The notes under the pieces were generated by a model that ran no database searches, was not told the DNA's origin, and saw nothing but the letters and a program-made list of their open reading frames with translations. A DNA stretch of 64,000 nt, from IMG/VR virus record IMGVR_UViG_3300023184_005208, positions 2,675-66,674 of that record; one strand, given 5' to 3'. Position 1 is the stretch's first letter, and each line of letters begins with the position of its first letter. This document shows, piece after piece, positions 47,316-63,967 of this stretch. The position numbers and the translations under genes were made by a program. The DNA is from a virus.

Positions 47316-49328
47316 ATGAACGACTTAATGGACGACGACGACAAAATGATGAGTAAGAAACAAAAACAATCCGACAGTTCTACACCAGTTTTAGATAACT
47401 TTAGTAGAGACCTAAACAAACTTGCCGAGGCTGGTAAATTAGACCCAGTTATTGGTAGAGACCGAGAAATCATAAGAATCGCTCAGATTCTATCTCGTAG
47501 AAAAAAGAATAACCCTATTATCATAGGTGAACCTGGTTGTGGTAAGACCGCAATCGTAGAAGGTTTAGCAATGAAAATTGTAAGTGGAGAATGTCCAAAA
47601 AATCTTTTGGATAAAAGAATCGTAAACCTTGATTTAACTTCAGTAGTTGCTGGTACAAAATACCGTGGTCAATTTGAAGAAAGAATGAAAGTTATTATTG
47701 AAGAACTTCATGCAAATCCTAATATCATCATATTCATCGATGAAATCCATACCCTTGTTGGTTCAGGTAACTCTTCAGGTTCTATGGATGGTTCAAACAT
47801 TTTCAAACCAGCATTATCTCGTGGTGAACTTCAATGTATTGGAGCAACTACTCTTGATGAGTTCCGTAAGAATATTGAGAAGGACGGAGCATTAGAGCGT
47901 AGATTCCAAAAGGTAATTGTTGACCCGTCTTCGGTACAAGAGACAATCGAAATTCTAAAGAATGTTCGTGATAAGTATGAATCCTATCACAAAGTAACAT
48001 ACTCAGATGAGGTTATTGAGACTTGTGTTAAGTTGGCGGACAGATATATCACCGACCGTGAGTTCCCTGATAAAGCGTTTGATATTATGGATGAAGTTGG
48101 AGCTCGTATGCAAACAGAAGTTAAAATCCCTGAGGCTATTGAAGTATTGAAGAAAGCTGCGGCTGAAATCAAACAACAAAAGTTGGATGTGGTTAAAAAA
48201 CAAAACTACGAGCAAGCGGCTGAATTACGTGACAAGGAAAAGAAAGTGTTAACCAAACTTGAAAATGAAAAATCCAAGTTTGAAGAACAACAATCAAAAG
48301 ACAAGAAAATAATTTCTCTTGAAAACGTCTATGATGTTGTTTCTAACATGACTAAAATTCCTGTAAACAAAATGAGCCTTGATGATGCAAAGGCATTAAT
48401 CAACTTGGACAAAGAGTTAATTGGTAAGGTTATCGGTCAAGACGCCGCAGTTATCAAGATTGCAAAATCAATCAAGAGAAACCGTTTAGGTATCAAAGAC
48501 CCAAATCGTCCAATTGGTTCATTCGTGTTCTTAGGTTCAACAGGTGTCGGTAAGACTCACTTGGCCAAACAATTGGCTAAGGAGATGTTCGGTTCCGAAG
48601 ATTCACTTATCCGTGTGGATATGTCTGAATACCAAGAGAAACACAGCATTTCCAAATTGGTAGGAGCCCCTCCAGGTTATGTAGGATATGAAGAAGGTGG
48701 ACAATTAACCGAGAAAGTTAAGAACAAACCATACTCAGTTATCTTATTTGATGAGGTGGAAAAAGCGCACAAAGATGTGTTCACAATCTTACTTCAAATC
48801 TTAGATGATGGTTACGCAACCGATAGTTTAGGTAGAAAGATTAACTTCAAGAATACCTTAATTATCTTAACCTCAAACTTGGGTGTTAAGAAATTACAAG
48901 ACTTTGGTACAGGTATTGGATTCTCAAACAACACCTACGCTAACGAAGAAGCTAAGAAACAAGTATTGATGAAGGAGATGAAAAATTTCTTCTCTCCTGA
49001 GTTCCTAAATCGTATTGATGACACTATTGTCTTCAACTCGTTAACTCCTGAAGACATCAAAAAAATCACCGAAATCGAATTGAAGAAATTGGTGAATCGT
49101 TTAAATGATATTAAATACAAAATCACTTATGACGATACTTTAGTTGATTATTTAGCTAAAGTAGGATTTGATGAGATGTACGGAGCAAGACCGCTGAAGA
49201 GAGCAATCCAAGACAAAGTTGAGGACTTGTTATCTGAAGAAGTCTTAACAGGTAAAATGATTGAAGGTAAATCTTACTTCATTAAAGTAGACAATGAAGA
49301 GATTAAGGTTACCAAGAAAGGAAAGTAA
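47316..49328 (+). CDS. clpC: ClpC-like double-AAA+ ATPase lacking the N-terminal domain
   Basis: GEPGCGKT, FIDEIH, UVR-like QNYEQAAELRD, GSTGVGKT, LFDEVEKAH, IGF loop, GARPLKR. Confidence 0.9.
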   Translation: MNDLMDDDDKMMSKKQKQSDSSTPVLDNFSRDLNKLAEAGKLDPVIGRDREIIRIAQILSRRKKNNPIIIGEPGCGKTAIVEGLAMKIVSGECPKNLLDKRIVNLDLTSVVAGTKYRGQFEERMKVIIEELHANPNIIIFIDEIHTLVGSGNSSGSMDGSNIFKPALSRGELQCIGATTLDEFRKNIEKDGALERRFQKVIVDPSSVQETIEILKNVRDKYESYHKVTYSDEVIETCVKLADRYITDREFPDKAFDIMDEVGARMQTEVKIPEAIEVLKKAAAEIKQQKLDVVKKQNYEQAAELRDKEKKVLTKLENEKSKFEEQQSKDKKIISLENVYDVVSNMTKIPVNKMSLDDAKALINLDKELIGKVIGQDAAVIKIAKSIKRNRLGIKDPNRPIGSFVFLGSTGVGKTHLAKQLAKEMFGSEDSLIRVDMSEYQEKHSISKLVGAPPGYVGYEEGGQLTEKVKNKPYSVILFDEVEKAHKDVFTILLQILDDGYATDSLGRKINFKNTLIILTSNLGVKKLQDFGTGIGFSNNTYANEEAKKQVLMKEMKNFFSPEFLNRIDDTIVFNSLTPEDIKKITEIELKKLVNRLNDIKYKITYDDTLVDYLAKVGFDEMYGARPLKRAIQDKVEDLLSEEVLTGKMIEGKSYFIKVDNEEIKVTKKGK

Positions 49329-53488: not shown

Positions 53489-53508
53489 CATATTTATTCT
53501 TATCTTTG
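53477..53508 (+). promoter_or_regulatory. Bacteroidota sigmaA-type promoter of tmRNA
   Basis: TTTG-N20-TATCTTTG. Confidence 0.7.
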
Positions 53509-53527: not shown

Positions 53528-53926
53528 GGGGGTGCCCTGGATTTGATTGCGATAATTAGGGTACGCAGGCACGTAGTCAGAATTCATCTATGACTTAAAT
53601 CTATGGTGAAAGATTTCAAATGGCAAAACTTTTGCTAAAATGGCTACTTTAGGTTTAACTAGAGAAGCTGTTGTTGTTGGTGCTTAATTAGTACAGAACA
53701 GCGTTCGGGTCGGTTAGGACATATAACCTAGGAACAGAAGTCCAATATAGGGGTCACAGGTCAGAGCTCCTTTAAAATAACTCTGAGACCAAGTTGTTTA
53801 CAGGTAAGTTTCTCACATATATCAAACCTGATATTTCGTAACATTGAGAACCGATGTTGTACTAAACGTGTAGTCTGTTTATGTTAATATTGTAAGACAA
53901 GGGTTCGATTCCCTTCACCTCCACCA
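53528..53926 (+). ncRNA. ssrA: tmRNA
   Basis: 5' GGGGGTG pairs with 3' CACCTCC-A-CCA (G3:U alanine identity); T-arm AAGGG-TTCGATT-CCCTT; internal tag ORF 53622-53687 ending GA-stop. Confidence 0.93.
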
Positions 53927-54501: not shown

Positions 54502-57051
54502 ATGAAAAAAACGGTAATTTTAACCTTAGGGTTAATGTTGACAGCGTTTTCATCCTTCGCACAAATTACAGGAAGGGTCGTTGACGCTACAACAAAAGAG
54601 GTATTGGCAGGTGCAACTGTTGGTACTGAAAAATCAAATGTTACAACTGGATTAGATGGAACATTTGAATTAAAAACTGTGAAAGCAGGTGAAAAACTTA
54701 ATGTATCTTTTATCGGATATAAGAACATTGTAATCACCGCAAAAGACGGAATTGTTATTGAATTATCTTCAACATCAATTGGTCTTAAGGAAGTATCAGT
54801 TATCGCTTCTTATGGTATTGACAGAAAAACACCAGCTGCTATCTCATCAGTAAAAGGTAGATACACTGTTGAAAATTTAGGTTCTCAAGAATTACCTGAA
54901 TTGTTAAAAATCACACCTTCGGCTTTTATTACGAAAGGTGGTGGTGGTGTTGGTGATTCTCGTATCAATATTAGAGGATTTGACCAAAAGAACGTTGCAA
55001 TTTTAATTAACGGTATTCCAGTAAACGATATGGAATCAGGTTGGGTTTATTTCTCAAACTGGGCAGGTATCGGTGATGCGTTAAAACAAATGCAAGTTCA
55101 AAGAGGTTTAGGAGCATCAAAATTAGCAATTCAATCAGTTGGTGGTACAATGAATATCATTACAAAAACAACTGATGCTGAAAAAGGAGCTTCATTCCAA
55201 CAATCTTTAACAGATTTTGGTTTAAGTAAATCAGTATTGTCTTATTCAACAGGTAACACTAAGAAAGGAGCATTTTCTTTTGTAGGTAGTACCACACAAG
55301 GTAATGGTTATGTTGAAGGTACTTACACAAAGGCTTATTCTTATTTCTTATCTTATGCTAAAGATTTAGGTTTAAATCATAAATTACAAATCATTGCATT
55401 AGGTGCACCTCAAGAACACGGACAACGTAGTTCTCGTTTAACACCCGCAGAATTTGACAAATATGGTGTAAAATACAATAAAGATTTGTATTTGTTAAAC
55501 GGTGAGTTGAAAAACATCAATATCAACTATTATCACAAACCAATTTTCCAAATTAATGATTATTGGACAATCAATAAAACAACAACATTAACAACATCTT
55601 TTTACGGTTCAATTGGACACGGTGGTGGTAGTGGTGCTATCGGTTCTTACGATGGTACTAAAGTTCTTAGAGACGCTCAAGGTCATTTAACAATGGACCC
55701 ACAAGTTGCTCTAAACGCAGCTTCTACAACTGGTTCTAAGTATGGTATTAGAAACTCAATCAACAATCATAGTTGGTATGGTGTATTATCTACATTAAAC
55801 AAAGATTTATCTAAAACATTAAACCTAACGTTAGGTGTTGATGGTAGAACTTATGTAGGAACTCACTTTAGAGAAATGAGAAATTTAATTGGTGGTTCTT
55901 ATTACAAAGATATATTCAATACTGCTGCAACAGTTGATGCAAATGCTAGTGATTTTATTAATATCAATAAAGTAACTCCAACTAACAATCGTATCGCTTA
56001 CGATAACGACGGTTTAGTTAAGTACGCAGGTACTTTTGGACAATTAGAATACTCTAAAGATAAATTATCAGCGTTCGTACAAGGTGCTATTTCTAACACA
56101 TCTTACCAAAGAGCTGATAGATACTACGCAAATGCAGTAGAACATTTATCTGAAAAAGTTAATATCACAGGATACAATTACAAAGGTGGTTTCAACTATA
56201 ACTTAACTGACAATCACAACGTATTTGTTAATGCTGGTCAATATAGTAGAGCACCTTATTTCAGTTTCATCTTCAACGGAGCTTCTCCTTCATCCGCAAC
56301 CGCAATCAATAGTGGTAACGCGGTGAATGATAACATCAAAAATGAACAAGCAACCGCAGTTGAGGTTGGTTATGGTTTCAGAAGTAAGTCGTTTAGAATT
56401 AAAGCTAACGCATATTACACTGATTTCAAAAATCGTTCTTTAACTTCTCCACTATTAACAAATGCTGATGGTACTCAATACAGAGCATTAATTGTTGGAC
56501 AAGGTGCAACACACAAAGGTGTTGAAATGGAAGCAGAATTAAAAGTATCTAAGAAATTAGATGTTAACGCATTTGCATCATTTGGTGATTGGAAATGGAA
56601 AGGAAACGCTTCTGCAACAATCCATGACGATATCAAAAATACAGATGTTAAAACATCAATCTTTTCTGACGGTTTATTCGTAGGTGACCAACCTCAAACA
56701 CAAGTAGGTGGTTACGCTAGATACCAATTAACTAAAAGAATAGATTTATCTGCAATTTATACTTTCAATGACAAGTATTACGCATACTATGACCCCACTT
56801 CAAGAACAAACGCAGCTGTAACAGCTCAACCTTATAAGTTGGATTCTTATGGTATCACTGATGCAAGAATTGGATATAAATGTAAAGTAGGTAAATTCCC
56901 AGTACACGTTCAATATCAAGTATACAACGTATTTGATACTAACTATTGGGCTGAAGCTAACGACGCTGGTGGTACATCAGTTGGTGTGTTAGGAACAGGA
57001 TACAAAGGTTGGGGTAGAAACTCTAACGTAAGTGTCAAAATTAACTTCTAA
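54502..57051 (+). CDS. TonB-dependent outer-membrane receptor (Bacteroidota type)
   Basis: Signal peptide ending FA/Q, CarboxypepD_reg-like domain (ITGRVVD...LAGATV...SFIGY), plug (INIRGF...LINGIP...GGTMNIITK), beta-barrel ending in Phe. Confidence 0.93.
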   Translation: MKKTVILTLGLMLTAFSSFAQITGRVVDATTKEVLAGATVGTEKSNVTTGLDGTFELKTVKAGEKLNVSFIGYKNIVITAKDGIVIELSSTSIGLKEVSVIASYGIDRKTPAAISSVKGRYTVENLGSQELPELLKITPSAFITKGGGGVGDSRINIRGFDQKNVAILINGIPVNDMESGWVYFSNWAGIGDALKQMQVQRGLGASKLAIQSVGGTMNIITKTTDAEKGASFQQSLTDFGLSKSVLSYSTGNTKKGAFSFVGSTTQGNGYVEGTYTKAYSYFLSYAKDLGLNHKLQIIALGAPQEHGQRSSRLTPAEFDKYGVKYNKDLYLLNGELKNININYYHKPIFQINDYWTINKTTTLTTSFYGSIGHGGGSGAIGSYDGTKVLRDAQGHLTMDPQVALNAASTTGSKYGIRNSINNHSWYGVLSTLNKDLSKTLNLTLGVDGRTYVGTHFREMRNLIGGSYYKDIFNTAATVDANASDFININKVTPTNNRIAYDNDGLVKYAGTFGQLEYSKDKLSAFVQGAISNTSYQRADRYYANAVEHLSEKVNITGYNYKGGFNYNLTDNHNVFVNAGQYSRAPYFSFIFNGASPSSATAINSGNAVNDNIKNEQATAVEVGYGFRSKSFRIKANAYYTDFKNRSLTSPLLTNADGTQYRALIVGQGATHKGVEMEAELKVSKKLDVNAFASFGDWKWKGNASATIHDDIKNTDVKTSIFSDGLFVGDQPQTQVGGYARYQLTKRIDLSAIYTFNDKYYAYYDPTSRTNAAVTAQPYKLDSYGITDARIGYKCKVGKFPVHVQYQVYNVFDTNYWAEANDAGGTSVGVLGTGYKGWGRNSNVSVKINF

Positions 57052-59199: not shown

Positions 59200-59278
59200 C
59201 TTCCATGTTCCCTCGTTTAAATTTTAGGTCAAAAATTGACATTGTAATATTCAAATAAATATCATATCTTTGTATTCT

Positions 59279-59899
59279 ATGAAAGTTATATTTTTAGATA
59301 ATGATGGAGTAATCTGTTTATCAAATAATTGGGGGGGTCGTACAAAAAAATGGGCGAAACATCGCTCCGCAAATCCTGAGTCAAGTAATTTACTCAGAGA
59401 AGCTCCCGTTGATGTAAGATTTGATGATTTTGATAAGAAATCTATTAAAATTTTAAATGAAATCTTAGAAGAAACAGGAGCAGAGATTGTAGTATCTTCT
59501 GATTGGAGATTTCATGCAACTTTAGAAGAATTAGGTGAATATTACGAATCCCAAGGAATCTCAAAAAAACCAATCGGATTTACCAAAAAGTTAGGCCAAT
59601 TTCAAAGACCTGAAAACTTCCCATGGTCTCGTCAGTGGGATTTAGAACAGTCAAGGTCCTTAGAGATACTTCAATACCTTAAAGACAATCCAGAGGTCAC
59701 AGAATGGGTTGCAGTAGATGATTTGAATATGGGAATACCACAGACTCACGAGAGTTGGGGTGAAATGGAAATGGATTGGGGTTTGACCAATTTTGTACTC
59801 ACACCAAAAAGTAGTGAAGGGATTAAACAAACAGGAATTAAAGATAAGATTATAAAAATTTTAAACGATGTCAAAGATAACGACAAAGGTGATAGTTAA
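59279..59899 (+). CDS. HAD domain protein (Swiss Army Knife RNA-repair type)
   Basis: IFLDNDGV, IVVSSDWR, WVAVDD; preceded by TATCTTTG (59265-59272). Confidence 0.8.
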   Translation: MKVIFLDNDGVICLSNNWGGRTKKWAKHRSANPESSNLLREAPVDVRFDDFDKKSIKILNEILEETGAEIVVSSDWRFHATLEELGEYYESQGISKKPIGFTKKLGQFQRPENFPWSRQWDLEQSRSLEILQYLKDNPEVTEWVAVDDLNMGIPQTHESWGEMEMDWGLTNFVLTPKSSEGIKQTGIKDKIIKILNDVKDNDKGDS

Positions 59900-62386: not shown

Positions 62387-63010
62387 TTAAATATTAACAA
62401 ATAATTCGTCTTGTGTCTTTCTTACTTTTTTATAATTTTGATAATCATCTGTGTCATCTCTATACCCTAAGGCGCAAACTACAACAGAAGTTGTATCGGT
62501 CAAACCTAAAATTTCATCGTATTGAGTTCTGTCAAAACCTTCCATAGGACAAGTATCAACATCAATCACTGCAGCAGTATTCAATAAGAACCCTAAGGCG
62601 ATATAAATTTGCTTATCAATCCAAGAAGATTTTTGAATCTCATCTAAAGAGTTGATAGTACCTTTCATCATTGCTTCAAATTGAACTAACCTTTCTTTTG
62701 GAACACCTCTTGTATTCACAATGTTTTCAATAAATGAATCCACATCAGATTCGTTGACTTCTTTTTTTCTTGTAAAAACTGCAAGTATTGATGAATCGGT
62801 AATTTGAGATTGTCCCCATGATGCCGCTTTTAATTTTTCTCTAATTTCAGGGTTCTTTACAAAAACAACTTGAAATGGTTGTAAACCGTAAGATGTTGGT
62901 GCAAATTGAATAGCTTGTTTTAAAACATCCATTTTACTCTCTGAGAGATTAACGCCTGAATTAAATTTTTTGGTCGCATATCTCCAACTTAATTTTTCTA
63001 TAATGTTCAT
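62387..63010 (-). CDS. nitroreductase (NfsB-like NAD(P)H oxidoreductase)
   Basis: WRYATKKF, APTSYGLQPF, DTCPMEGFD, ALGYR. Confidence 0.92.
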   Translation of the reverse strand: MNIIEKLSWRYATKKFNSGVNLSESKMDVLKQAIQFAPTSYGLQPFQVVFVKNPEIREKLKAASWGQSQITDSSILAVFTRKKEVNESDVDSFIENIVNTRGVPKERLVQFEAMMKGTINSLDEIQKSSWIDKQIYIALGFLLNTAAVIDVDTCPMEGFDRTQYDEILGLTDTTSVVVCALGYRDDTDDYQNYKKVRKTQDELFVNI

Positions 63011-63035
63011 AATTTCTTTTTTTTTAAATATAACA

Positions 63036-63067
63036 AAAAACCCCCAATATATCAAATATTGGGGGTT
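63036..63067 (-). terminator. intrinsic terminator
   Basis: AACCCCCAATAT...ATATTGGGGGTT with A-tract on the left. Confidence 0.75.
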
Positions 63068-63089
63068 AGTTTCTTTACAGAGAGTTATA

Positions 63090-63269
63090 TTATTTAACTT
63101 CTGCCGCTTTAGGAGCTTCAGCTTTTGCTGAATCTACAGAAACAACTGTAGAATCTACTTTAGTTGAATCAGCTACAACAGCAGTTGAATCAGTCTTTAC
63201 CTCAGTTGATGTTCCTGTTCCACAAGATGCCAATGCAACGATTGACAAAATAGCTAGGATTTTTTTCAT
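63090..63269 (-). CDS. small lipoprotein, not in the ORF track
   Basis: MKKILAILSIVALAS-C lipobox then GTGTSTEVKTDSTAVVADSTKVDSTVVSVDSAKAEAPKAAEVK (59 aa). Confidence 0.8.
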   Translation of the reverse strand: MKKILAILSIVALASCGTGTSTEVKTDSTAVVADSTKVDSTVVSVDSAKAEAPKAAEVK

Positions 63270-63368
63270 GTTTTTTTCTTTTTTTTGGTTAATGTTTAAA
63301 TAACTTTAATAGACTATAAATATACAACAAACTATCCAATTAGTCAATTTTTATATTTAATTATTTTG

Positions 63369-63456
63369 CGGAGAGTGCTGGATTTGAACCAGCGGTACCC
63401 TTTAGAGGTACGACAGTTTAGCAAACTGTTGGATTAAACCGCTCTCCCAACTCTCC
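63369..63456 (-). tRNA. tRNA-Ser(GCT)
   Basis: GGAGAGT/ACTCTCC acceptor, ACAGT-TTGCTAA-ACTGT anticodon arm, long variable arm, GGTTCAAATCC. Confidence 0.93.
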
Positions 63457-63689
63457 TAACTTATAATGTTTATTTCACTTTCAGTTTCAATAACAACCCT
63501 TGCACCACAACTTAAAATAGGTTTTTCATCACCAAAACCACAATAAGTAATTTTACTTGGTCCTAAAATTTCAACCTCATTACAATAAGTGTTCTTTCTC
63601 CCCTGTTTTATGGTGATTACAGGTAAGTTAGTCCCTTTAATCTTATTTGACCTTATATGGTGTTGATTTACGTGTATTTTAGTTTTCAT
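63456..63689 (-). CDS. small hypothetical phage protein
   Basis: MKTKIHVNQH.IRSN...PILSCGARVVIET (77 aa) between tRNAs. Confidence 0.75.
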   Translation of the reverse strand: MKTKIHVNQHHIRSNKIKGTNLPVITIKQGRKNTYCNEVEILGPSKITYCGFGDEKPILSCGARVVIETESEINIIS

Positions 63690-63691
63690 TG

Positions 63692-63765
63692 TTGGAGTAG
63701 GTGGACTCGAACCACCGACATTCACCGTATCAGGATGACGCTCTAACCAACTGAGCTATACTCCA
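63692..63765 (-). tRNA. tRNA-Ile(GAT)
   Basis: TGGAGTA/TACTCCA, TAGCTCAGTTGGTTAGAGC, loop CTGATAC, GGTTCGAGTCC. Confidence 0.92.
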
Positions 63766-63773
63766 ATAAAATA

Positions 63774-63890
63774 AGGTAGAAGCACCCAAAAGGGGTTTGG
63801 CCTCGGGTTACATCACGTATAGGAGCCCTGTGCTCCAACCCCGATATTGTGCGACGGCCGCATCAGTTTCTACTGAATCCTTCTCTACCT
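63774..63890 (-). ncRNA. unclassified structured RNA in tRNA array
   Basis: Closing stem AGGTAGA/TCTACCT plus four internal helices; GC-rich; no ORF. Confidence 0.6.
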
Positions 63891-63895
63891 CATTG

Positions 63896-63967
63896 TGTGA
63901 CTAGAGAGAATCGAACTCTCACATGAAGCGCCACAAGCTTCCGCCCTACCATTAGGCTATAGCCACC
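63896..63967 (-). tRNA. tRNA-His(GTG)
   Basis: G-1 GTGGCTA/TAGTCAC, GAAGC-TTGTGGC-GCTTC, GAGAG-TTCGATT-CTCTC. Confidence 0.92.

Follow-up and report, generated by a model that had tools for sequence, protein, structure and literature searches.

Is the 129-nt spacer between two transfer RNA (tRNA) genes of an uncultured phage a gene in its own right? We addressed this question in a window of 64,000 nt, the whole stretch of DNA analysed here, which corresponds to bases 2675-66674 of the 66,674-nt IMG/VR record IMGVR_UViG_3300023184_005208 and ends where the contig ends. With a completeness of 16 % (CheckV), the record is a fragment of a very large phage, and the window carries T4-type genes for the portal (Gp20), the major capsid protein (Gp23) and the large terminase. 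Its final 650 nt hold tRNA-Ser(GCU), tRNA-Ile(GAU) and tRNA-His(GUG), all on the minus strand (ARAGORN); judged from the relatives L017 and L067, they form the end of a 22-gene tRNA array. A preliminary description of the locus had proposed a structured RNA that is not a tRNA on the tRNA strand of the array. We confirm that a real non-coding RNA, folded and strongly conserved, occupies the stretch between tRNA-His and tRNA-Ile. Extra small RNAs in phage tRNA clusters are a kind already known; what is new is this family.

On the minus strand, the 117-nt stretch that had first been singled out folds into a four-way junction with a minimum free energy (MFE) of -44.9 kcal/mol (z = -3.12), and 2 of 200 shuffled sequences fold as well. 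The plus strand folds less well (z = -1.72, 10 of 200 shuffles). For the whole 129-nt spacer, folded from the identical copy in L017, the values are -49.3 kcal/mol and z = -4.37 with none of 200 shuffles as good, and the closing stem reaches 12 bp, pairing window positions 63883-63894 with 63770-63781. The fold consists of this closing helix (P1), a hairpin (P2), a long arm (P3) and a second hairpin (P4). Every stem named in the preliminary description was found in place on the minus strand, and its remark that the RNA is GC-rich in an AT-rich genome also holds: the GC content of 0.50-0.53 is on par with that of the flanking tRNAs, compared to 0.2-0.4 in the neighbouring DNA and 0.32 in the genome. 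The covariance model R1 scores the window element at 151.3 bits (E 6.8e-30). At position 63773 the window has U, whereas L004 and one RNA-library contig have C, which turns a G.U pair of P1 into G-C.

Pattern scans recovered the element in 4 other viral contigs (L004, L008, L017 and L025), and 15 of 23 metagenome pattern matches hold it, the other 8 being chance matches in coding DNA. L059 is as long as L008, and L064 as long as L025; each pair is probably one and the same record, so 17 further contigs are left in total. Selection on the element is visible across these close copies, which comprise seven sequence variants: the element is 97.5-100 % identical and tRNA-Ile 98.7-100 %, compared to 86.5-98.9 % for tRNA-Ser, down to 88 % for orf77, a 77-aa open reading frame (ORF), 78-98 % for a lipoprotein gene and 65-83 % for an M23 peptidase gene. 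The rare differences concern the length of the P4 loop or turn G-C into G.U in stems. All nine carrier records examined contain a single copy, as does the window's own record.

Exact-word and degenerate scans from the P2 side returned near-identical copies only. Among cultured phages, blastn found tRNA parts or chance matches of 22-24 nt at E about 4, and a degenerate pattern run over prokaryote genome contigs gave 2 chance matches. R1 found the element in none of 10 other phage records and a second covariance model, R2, in none of 23 records not already known as carriers. Anchoring the search on the anticodon arm of tRNA-Ile yielded 10 further phage loci (L070-L079), with the element in none of them. 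The diverged copies were reached only by the last viral scan, whose query was 18 nt from the 3' side of the P3 arm. It returned 9 stretches, 4 known and 5 new, and R1 matched all 5 new ones: L086 (103 bits), L083 and L085 (92.9 bits each), L084 (43.4 bits) and L082 (22.4 bits, P3 arm only). They define four diverged lineages (L083/L085, L086, L084 and L082), five with the main clade, and the family is probably spread more widely than that.

These lineages differ at the periphery of the fold. The phage of L086 is an AT-rich jumbo phage and a relative of the window phage; L084 (60 % GC) and L082 (54 % GC, record 96 % complete) come from different, GC-rich phages. L083/L085 depart from the main clade in the sequences of P1, P2 and tRNA-Ile and have an enlarged P4, with a 30-nt insertion in L083; within the main clade the P4 loop has 5, 6 or 7 nt. 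L083 folds into a five-way junction, and so does L084, where GAGAGUG/CACUCUC forms a new closing helix. The P3 arm of L082 is part of a larger branched fold with a 10-bp closing helix, about 0.4 kb after tRNA-Arg. The main clade, L086 and L083 have retained the P2 loop AGAA; L084 has not.

Common to all five lineages is the P3 interior, GUCGCA-N-AAUAUCGGG(G), a variable hairpin and (C)CUAUACGUGAUGUAACCCGA, which makes a core of about 38 nt that is nearly constant. The 5' half of this core is kept in the five lineages except at the N position, at the fourth base, where G becomes A in L086, and at the last G, in L082. The identity of the 3' half is partly a matter of construction because 18 of its 21 nt are the search pattern.

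Compensatory changes establish the structure at the RNA level. We used two alignments, A3 (10 rows), fitted to a covariance model, and A4 (6 rows), built with MAFFT and RNAalifold without a model. In A3, 97.6 % of the cells are paired and both-side changes occur in 19 of 42 pairs, a level reached by none of 500 shuffles, and controls with slid partners gave 1-4 such pairs only. P1 accounts for 8 of its 12 pairs and the base of P3 for 2; the remainder fall in P2, the P3 tip and P4 (Table 1). The same helices emerge from A4, where 11 of 34 pairs are compensatory. Homologs in several lineages together with compensatory changes are what marks a structured non-coding RNA (ncRNA) family, and both were found, as were both-side changes in the diverged homologs for the closing stem and for the previously named stems TCAGT/ACTGA, GGCC/GGCC, GGAGC/GCTCC and ACCC/GGGT. 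One further stem from that description, TCGGG/CCCGA, is present and paired in 10 of 10 rows; being invariant, it is neither supported nor refuted by covariation. A competing MFE pairing joins UCG with CGA and AUAUCG with UGAUGU, with one A.C cell, in L086, and since the middle of P3 never varies, the pairing there could be either UCGGG/CCCGA or this alternative. The alignment also contains constant G.U pairs, for example the final pair of P1 (9 of 9 rows). Together with the weaker fold of the plus strand, they point to the minus strand as the RNA strand.

Table 1. Window positions of the RNA element, its parts and the adjoining tRNA genes
Feature	Position	Strand	Remark
tRNA-His(GUG)	63895-63966	minus	Upstream neighbour only in window type
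Whole RNA element, 125 nt, closed multi-helix junction	63770-63894	minus	Best match of covariance models R1 and R2
P1, 5' strand, AAUGAGGUAGAG	63883-63894	minus	Core in the preliminary description starts at 63890
P2 hairpin, G..UCAGU-AGAA-ACUGA..C	63860-63879	minus	5 of 6 pairs change on both sides
P3 long arm	63799-63859	minus	Variable base helix GGCC/GGCC, nearly invariant inner region, variable tip hairpin
Conserved core, 5' half, GUCGCA-N-AAUAUCGGGG	63839-63855	minus	Outside the search pattern
P3 tip hairpin, GGAGC-ACAGG-GCUCC	63822-63836	minus	3 of 5 pairs change on both sides; loop and length lineage-specific
Conserved core, 3' half, CCUAUACGUGAUGUAACCCGA	63803-63823	minus	Same in all 5 lineages
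P4 hairpin, ACCC-CUUUU-GGGU	63784-63796	minus	1 of 4 pairs covaries
P1, 3' strand, UUCUACCUUAUU	63770-63781	minus	RNAalifold consensus and covariation
4-nt U/A linker to tRNA-Ile	63766-63769	minus	Putative RNase P leader
tRNA-Ile(GAU)	63691-63765	minus	Constant downstream partner in two clades

The family is absent from Rfam 15. None of its 4227 models, which include hammerhead, twister, twister-sister, pistol, hatchet, hairpin, HDV, SRP, 6S, 5S, YrlA and riboswitches, matches positions 63766-63894 at the gathering score or at E<=10, as a check suggested in the preliminary description would have it for a new RNA. The L017 copy has no match at E<=0.1 and the four diverged copies have none at E<=5 on the element strand; the sole overlap in the diverged copies is a sub-threshold His_leader on the opposite strand of L092 (32.5 bits vs a gathering score of 49). 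We reject a tRNA: ARAGORN reports tRNA-Ser, tRNA-Ile and tRNA-His only and none in the element, the tRNA model RF00005 has no match over 63766-63894 even at E<=10, and P4, a 4-bp stem with a variable loop of 5-7 nt, is unlike a canonical T arm. A Y-RNA-like species, suggested earlier, is not supported either, as the YrlA model has no match on the element in the window, in L017 or in the diverged copies and the T-arm module is missing. No TROVE (Ro) or RtcB gene was found in the 66.7-kb record, which is weak evidence because that record is only about 16 % of the genome. HDV-like ribozymes form a nested double pseudoknot (P1, P1.1, P2, P3 and P4) with a catalytic C in J4/2 and cleave at their own 5' end. 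A double-pseudoknot descriptor of our own for this fold, distinct from the published one, gave 0 arrangements in the 220 nt from the 3' end of tRNA-His to tRNA-Ile; with a nested junction fold and no HDV-type Rfam match, the element does not fit an HDV-like or theta ribozyme. A homolog of the T4 RNAs rnaC and rnaD is rejected as well, R1 having no match at E<=10 in T4 positions 66000-78000 (L046) and the folds being different. A literature search found no described equivalent; most subscription journals lie outside that search, so this is not proof that the RNA is unpublished.

The element is linked to tRNA-Ile. It ends 4-5 nt before tRNA-Ile(GAU) in every main-clade copy, and in L083/L085 the same tRNA is again directly downstream, after an identical UUAUU linker. 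What precedes the element in the main clade varies between tRNA-His (window type) and a DUF5856 (Dps-like) gene. In copies of the latter, promoter type, the DUF5856 gene is followed by a terminator-like hairpin and then by TAnnTTTG, which ends 2 nt before the first column of alignment A2. The order in L083/L085 is Dps-like gene, terminator, promoter, element, UUAUU, tRNA-Ile and tRNA-Ser. Altogether, TAnnTTTG ends 2-6 nt before the element, past a terminator-like hairpin, in 7 of 7 examined loci without a preceding tRNA. TAnnTTTG at -7 together with TTTG near -33 is described as the primary promoter consensus of Bacteroidota (PMC7366714). Judging from the position of the motif, transcription of the promoter-type copies should start near 63890, the first base of the RNA as originally delimited. 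Such a start fits the observation that precisely these copies have the outer three pairs of P1 broken. TAnnTTTG is not enriched across the window (121 matches vs 106 +/- 10 expected); only its fixed position before the element counts.

The linkage also shows in losses and in distant copies. The close relative L045, whose array ends at tRNA-His, is without the element, tRNA-Ile and tRNA-Ser together. In L086 the element stands alone: two same-strand ORFs flank the 180-nt gap that holds it, and a tRNA group lies about 0.7 kb away. L082 and L086 alike have tRNA genes on the strand of the element at a distance of no more than about 0.7 kb.

The element is present in RNA libraries. Nine RNA runs contained part of a 701-nt query and four of them, from four studies, aligned to the window with contigs 99-100 % identical to it: X1 (63683-63873), X2 (63725-63890), X3 (63787-63942) and X5 (63724-63915). 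These contigs join the element to tRNA-His (X3 and X5) and to tRNA-Ile (X1, X2 and X5), and record 13 of X2 has a boundary at 63890, with 48 unlike letters upstream. They establish presence and co-linearity; ends, strand and abundance are not readable from contigs. The coding genes at 62400-63300 have no high-identity contig cover in the four RNA runs, which says nothing on their expression.

What, then, does this RNA do? With about even confidence, we consider the locus to be the gene of a small structured ncRNA of an uncatalogued family, carried by uncultured phages mostly inside or beside their tRNA clusters, and its product to be a stable RNA that is released by tRNA enzymes and acts in trans via P3. 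The RNA would be transcribed on the tRNA strand: in the window type, where it comes right after tRNA-His, within the array transcript, or alternatively from a Bacteroidota-type promoter of its own. The RNase P cut at the 5' end of tRNA-Ile, 4-5 nt downstream, would produce its 3' end and, in the window type, the 3' processing of tRNA-His its 5' end. P1, a terminal helix of 8-12 bp that closes the molecule, is expected to stabilise it. We hypothesize that P1, P2, P4 and the P3 tip form a scaffold and that the P3 core of about 38 nt is the working part, most likely binding a partner conserved across bacterial phyla, either a protein or an RNA from the machinery of translation or RNA processing. 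The idea of a processed stable RNA, already put forward for this locus, is therefore retained as the best reading, with the reservation that the RNA contigs have no ends and give no discrete transcript.

Several observations weigh against this interpretation. The effective diversity is five lineages, with 7 of the 10 A3 rows near-identical, and A3 was fitted to a covariance model. L086 and L084 have no adjacent tRNA, which means that tRNA-linked processing cannot be the general route, and the L086 site, a short gap between same-strand ORFs, also fits a cis-acting mRNA element. The invariance of the 3' core is biased by the search pattern; the 5' half is free of that bias. The RNA evidence is made of assembled contigs, for which DNA carry-over is possible. 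Finally, a search among five records for a shared partner protein showed that G015 (GC-rich) shares only the T4-type large terminase with the AT-rich records; one exonuclease-like protein in this search is shared with G017.

An alternative that we find unlikely, and that deserves the closest attention, is a cis-acting leader or spacer: a structured 5' leader of tRNA-Ile that insulates the folding of neighbouring tRNAs and sets where RNase P and RNase Z cut, with no role after release. The fixed spacing to tRNA-Ile and the UUAUU linker shared by two clades are what such a leader predicts, and four other spacers of the same arrays fold with closing stems (z -3.0 to -3.3), one of which, the Arg-Leu spacer, differs among L017, L066 and L045 yet retains its closing stem. 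An insulator, however, needs neither 117 nt held at 97.5-100 % while neighbouring genes drop to 65 %, nor a core kept between AT-rich and GC-rich phages. Furthermore, the copies in L086 and L084 have no adjacent tRNA to lead into, and the relatives L070-L079, with a similar tRNA-Ile, manage without the element in 10 of 10 cases.

Somewhat less probable still is that phages carry a new functional class of RNA whose active site is the P3 core, kept between T4-type Bacteroidota jumbo phages and GC-rich phages unrelated to them. Such an RNA could be a ribozyme, self-cleaving or processing, or could dock onto a universal component of the cell. One speculative version is docking to the tRNA elbow by a double T-loop-like module. 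The core UGUAA fits 'UG..A' and the P2 loop AGAAA fits 'AG..A', both patterns being named in PMC3664808; the P2 loop is kept in only 3 of the 5 lineages. The narrower case of a self-cleaving ribozyme of a new class, with the invariant P3 interior as a catalytic core that helps to cut the tRNA-array transcript, strikes us as quite improbable. An invariant core with covarying peripheral helices and optional stems does resemble small ribozymes, and HDV-like theta ribozymes are reported to flank phage tRNA genes (PMC10879173). Against it stand the Rfam searches, in which no ribozyme model matched at the limits given above, and our own HDV-like descriptor with its empty result; neither joints nor end pile-ups are seen in the RNA contigs, which could not show them anyway.

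The tRNA mimic and the anticodon-nuclease decoy offered in the preliminary description, and likewise a decayed tRNA gene, now appear very unlikely. The window copy alone would suggest them, with its four-way shape, its closing helix of 8-12 bp and its tRNA-like spacing, and an RNA-repair-type HAD_SAK_2 gene lies 4 kb away. Yet the cloverleaf-like shape is lost in the five-way copies L083 and L084, the would-be T arm P4 is the least conserved part, and neither ARAGORN nor the Rfam tRNA model reports anything. The conserved part is the P3 interior, which is not an anticodon-type loop; no hairpin resembling an anticodon loop is conserved, and the P3 tip differs in every lineage.

We give marginally less weight to a ligand-sensing, riboswitch-like aptamer controlling the downstream unit of tRNA-Ile, orf77 and tRNA-Ser, or ORFs. 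The element is the first to be transcribed in the promoter-type copies, it lies directly upstream of a 592-aa ORF in L086, and its core is kept across hosts of differing GC content. But neither a competing terminator nor sequestration of a start site can be seen that would serve as an expression platform, the downstream genes differ in every lineage, and the window-type copy is internal to the tRNA array. Least probable of all is an element of the DNA itself, for example a miniature inverted-repeat insertion or a site of homing or recombination, with a terminal inverted repeat that mimics an RNA stem: spacer modules do come and go (Tyr-Met is absent in L004 and L025, and the element with tRNA-Ile and tRNA-Ser in L045), but the single copy per record rejects a repeated mobile element, the compensatory changes affect four internal helices and not the terminal one alone, and the G.U pairs give strand specificity.

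The surroundings of the element contain further features. A tmRNA gene lies at 53528-53926 on the plus strand (Rfam, 91.1 bits), with the motif TATCTTTG about 20 nt upstream (53501-53508); the relatives L025 and L052 carry tmRNA too. Host-like genes encode a TonB-dependent receptor with CarboxypepD_reg and Plug domains (54502-57051), a ClpB-type double AAA ATPase (47316-49328), the HAD_SAK_2 (RNA-repair-associated) protein (59270-59899) and a nitroreductase (62387-63055). An insertion of 234 nt (63456-63689, minus strand) separates tRNA-Ile from tRNA-Ser and encodes the 77-aa ORF (PHROG 8676, no Pfam match). It is present in the window, in L025 and in the promoter-type relatives; in L004, L008, L017, L053 and L067, which are without it, the gap between the two tRNAs is 3 nt.

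Other spacers of these arrays are also structured. The Arg-Leu, Glu-Val and Tyr-Met spacers (L017 4353-4449, 4845-4939 and 6560-6666) form closed multi-branch folds with z of -3.0 to -3.3 and are GC-richer than the genome; such spacers are also seen in L008, L067, L053, L066 and L045. R1, run on L017, detected no relative of the element among the other array spacers. In L004 and L025, which are without the Tyr-Met module, the gap is 6 nt. An element of 129-146 nt always follows tRNA-Trp (L017 6331-6476; also L004, L025, L045, L051, L061 and L062), with Tyr, Gln or Met as the next tRNA. It has conserved ends, GGUUGAU.GGGAA ... GUAAUGCC.AUCAUAAAAGG.G..GUCCAC...CCAUCUUC.CCUUUCC, and a variable middle, gives no Rfam match in L017 at E<=0.1 and is possibly a second new RNA family. 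The gap of 121 nt between tRNA-Cys and tRNA-Trp (L017 6136-6256; L045, L057, L061, L053 and L025) is of a different nature: it contains a conserved lysine-rich ORF of about 39 aa (MRKKQIDQMVKAIKK...) and is a protein gene inside the tRNA array, not an RNA element. In an unrelated phage (L024 2117-2293, L028 3329-3505), a 147-nt inter-tRNA spacer is closed by a perfect 19-bp inverted repeat, so closed structured spacers in phage tRNA arrays are not limited to the clade of the window. In the array of the relative L053, at 1573-1654, ARAGORN also calls a tRNA of 82 nt whose anticodon has two bases (tRNA-???, 'tg').

We compared the element with known systems, starting from its predicted release by tRNA enzymes. 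Spacers of bacterial tRNA operons can act as sponges of small RNAs. MALAT1 and NEAT1 use the tRNA-processing machinery (mascRNA; PMC12941219). The shared idea is that the RNase P cut at a downstream tRNA or tRNA-like structure sets the 3' end of a functional upstream RNA, as it would in our element; in contrast to these systems, 2 of the 5 lineages of the element are without a neighbouring tRNA. Theta ribozymes are, like the element, small structured RNAs directly beside the tRNA genes of uncultured phages, as reported in PMC10879173, but the element is a nested junction instead of a double pseudoknot and has twice the size. YrlA shares with it a similar size, a closing helix formed from both ends and a multi-branched body; the element differs in having neither a YrlA model match nor a T-arm module, and no Ro/TROVE gene is found in its (16 % complete) record.

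The closest parallel comes from T4. Where its tRNA cluster ends, the T4 record has two small stable RNAs, rnaC (species 1, 139 nt) and rnaD (species 2, 119 nt), whose purpose, to our knowledge, has never been explained. Like them, the element is a non-tRNA RNA of about 120-140 nt, in or at the end of a tRNA cluster, on the tRNA strand and a few nt from a tRNA, and the phage of the window has the portal, major capsid protein and terminase of the T4 type. One primary transcript is described as the precursor of eight T4 tRNAs and of the species I and II RNAs (PMC2330249). The differences are that rnaC ends in a canonical T-arm, CCGGGUUCGAAUCCCGG, which the element does not have, and that rnaD folds no better than shuffles (z = -0.83). 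We therefore regard the element as analogous to the T4 species 1 and 2 RNAs, not homologous with them. Whether or not it proves to be a trans-acting RNA working through P3, as we favour, it is after T4 a second, unrelated example of a non-tRNA RNA in a phage tRNA cluster. With at least four more structured spacers in the same arrays, the tRNA arrays of jumbo phages may be a rich and unexplored source of RNA genes. The element has what the T4 RNAs lack, namely homologs in several lineages, clear covariation and a sharply defined invariant core, and this module of 38 nt opens to experiment the question of why phages keep non-tRNA RNAs among their tRNAs.
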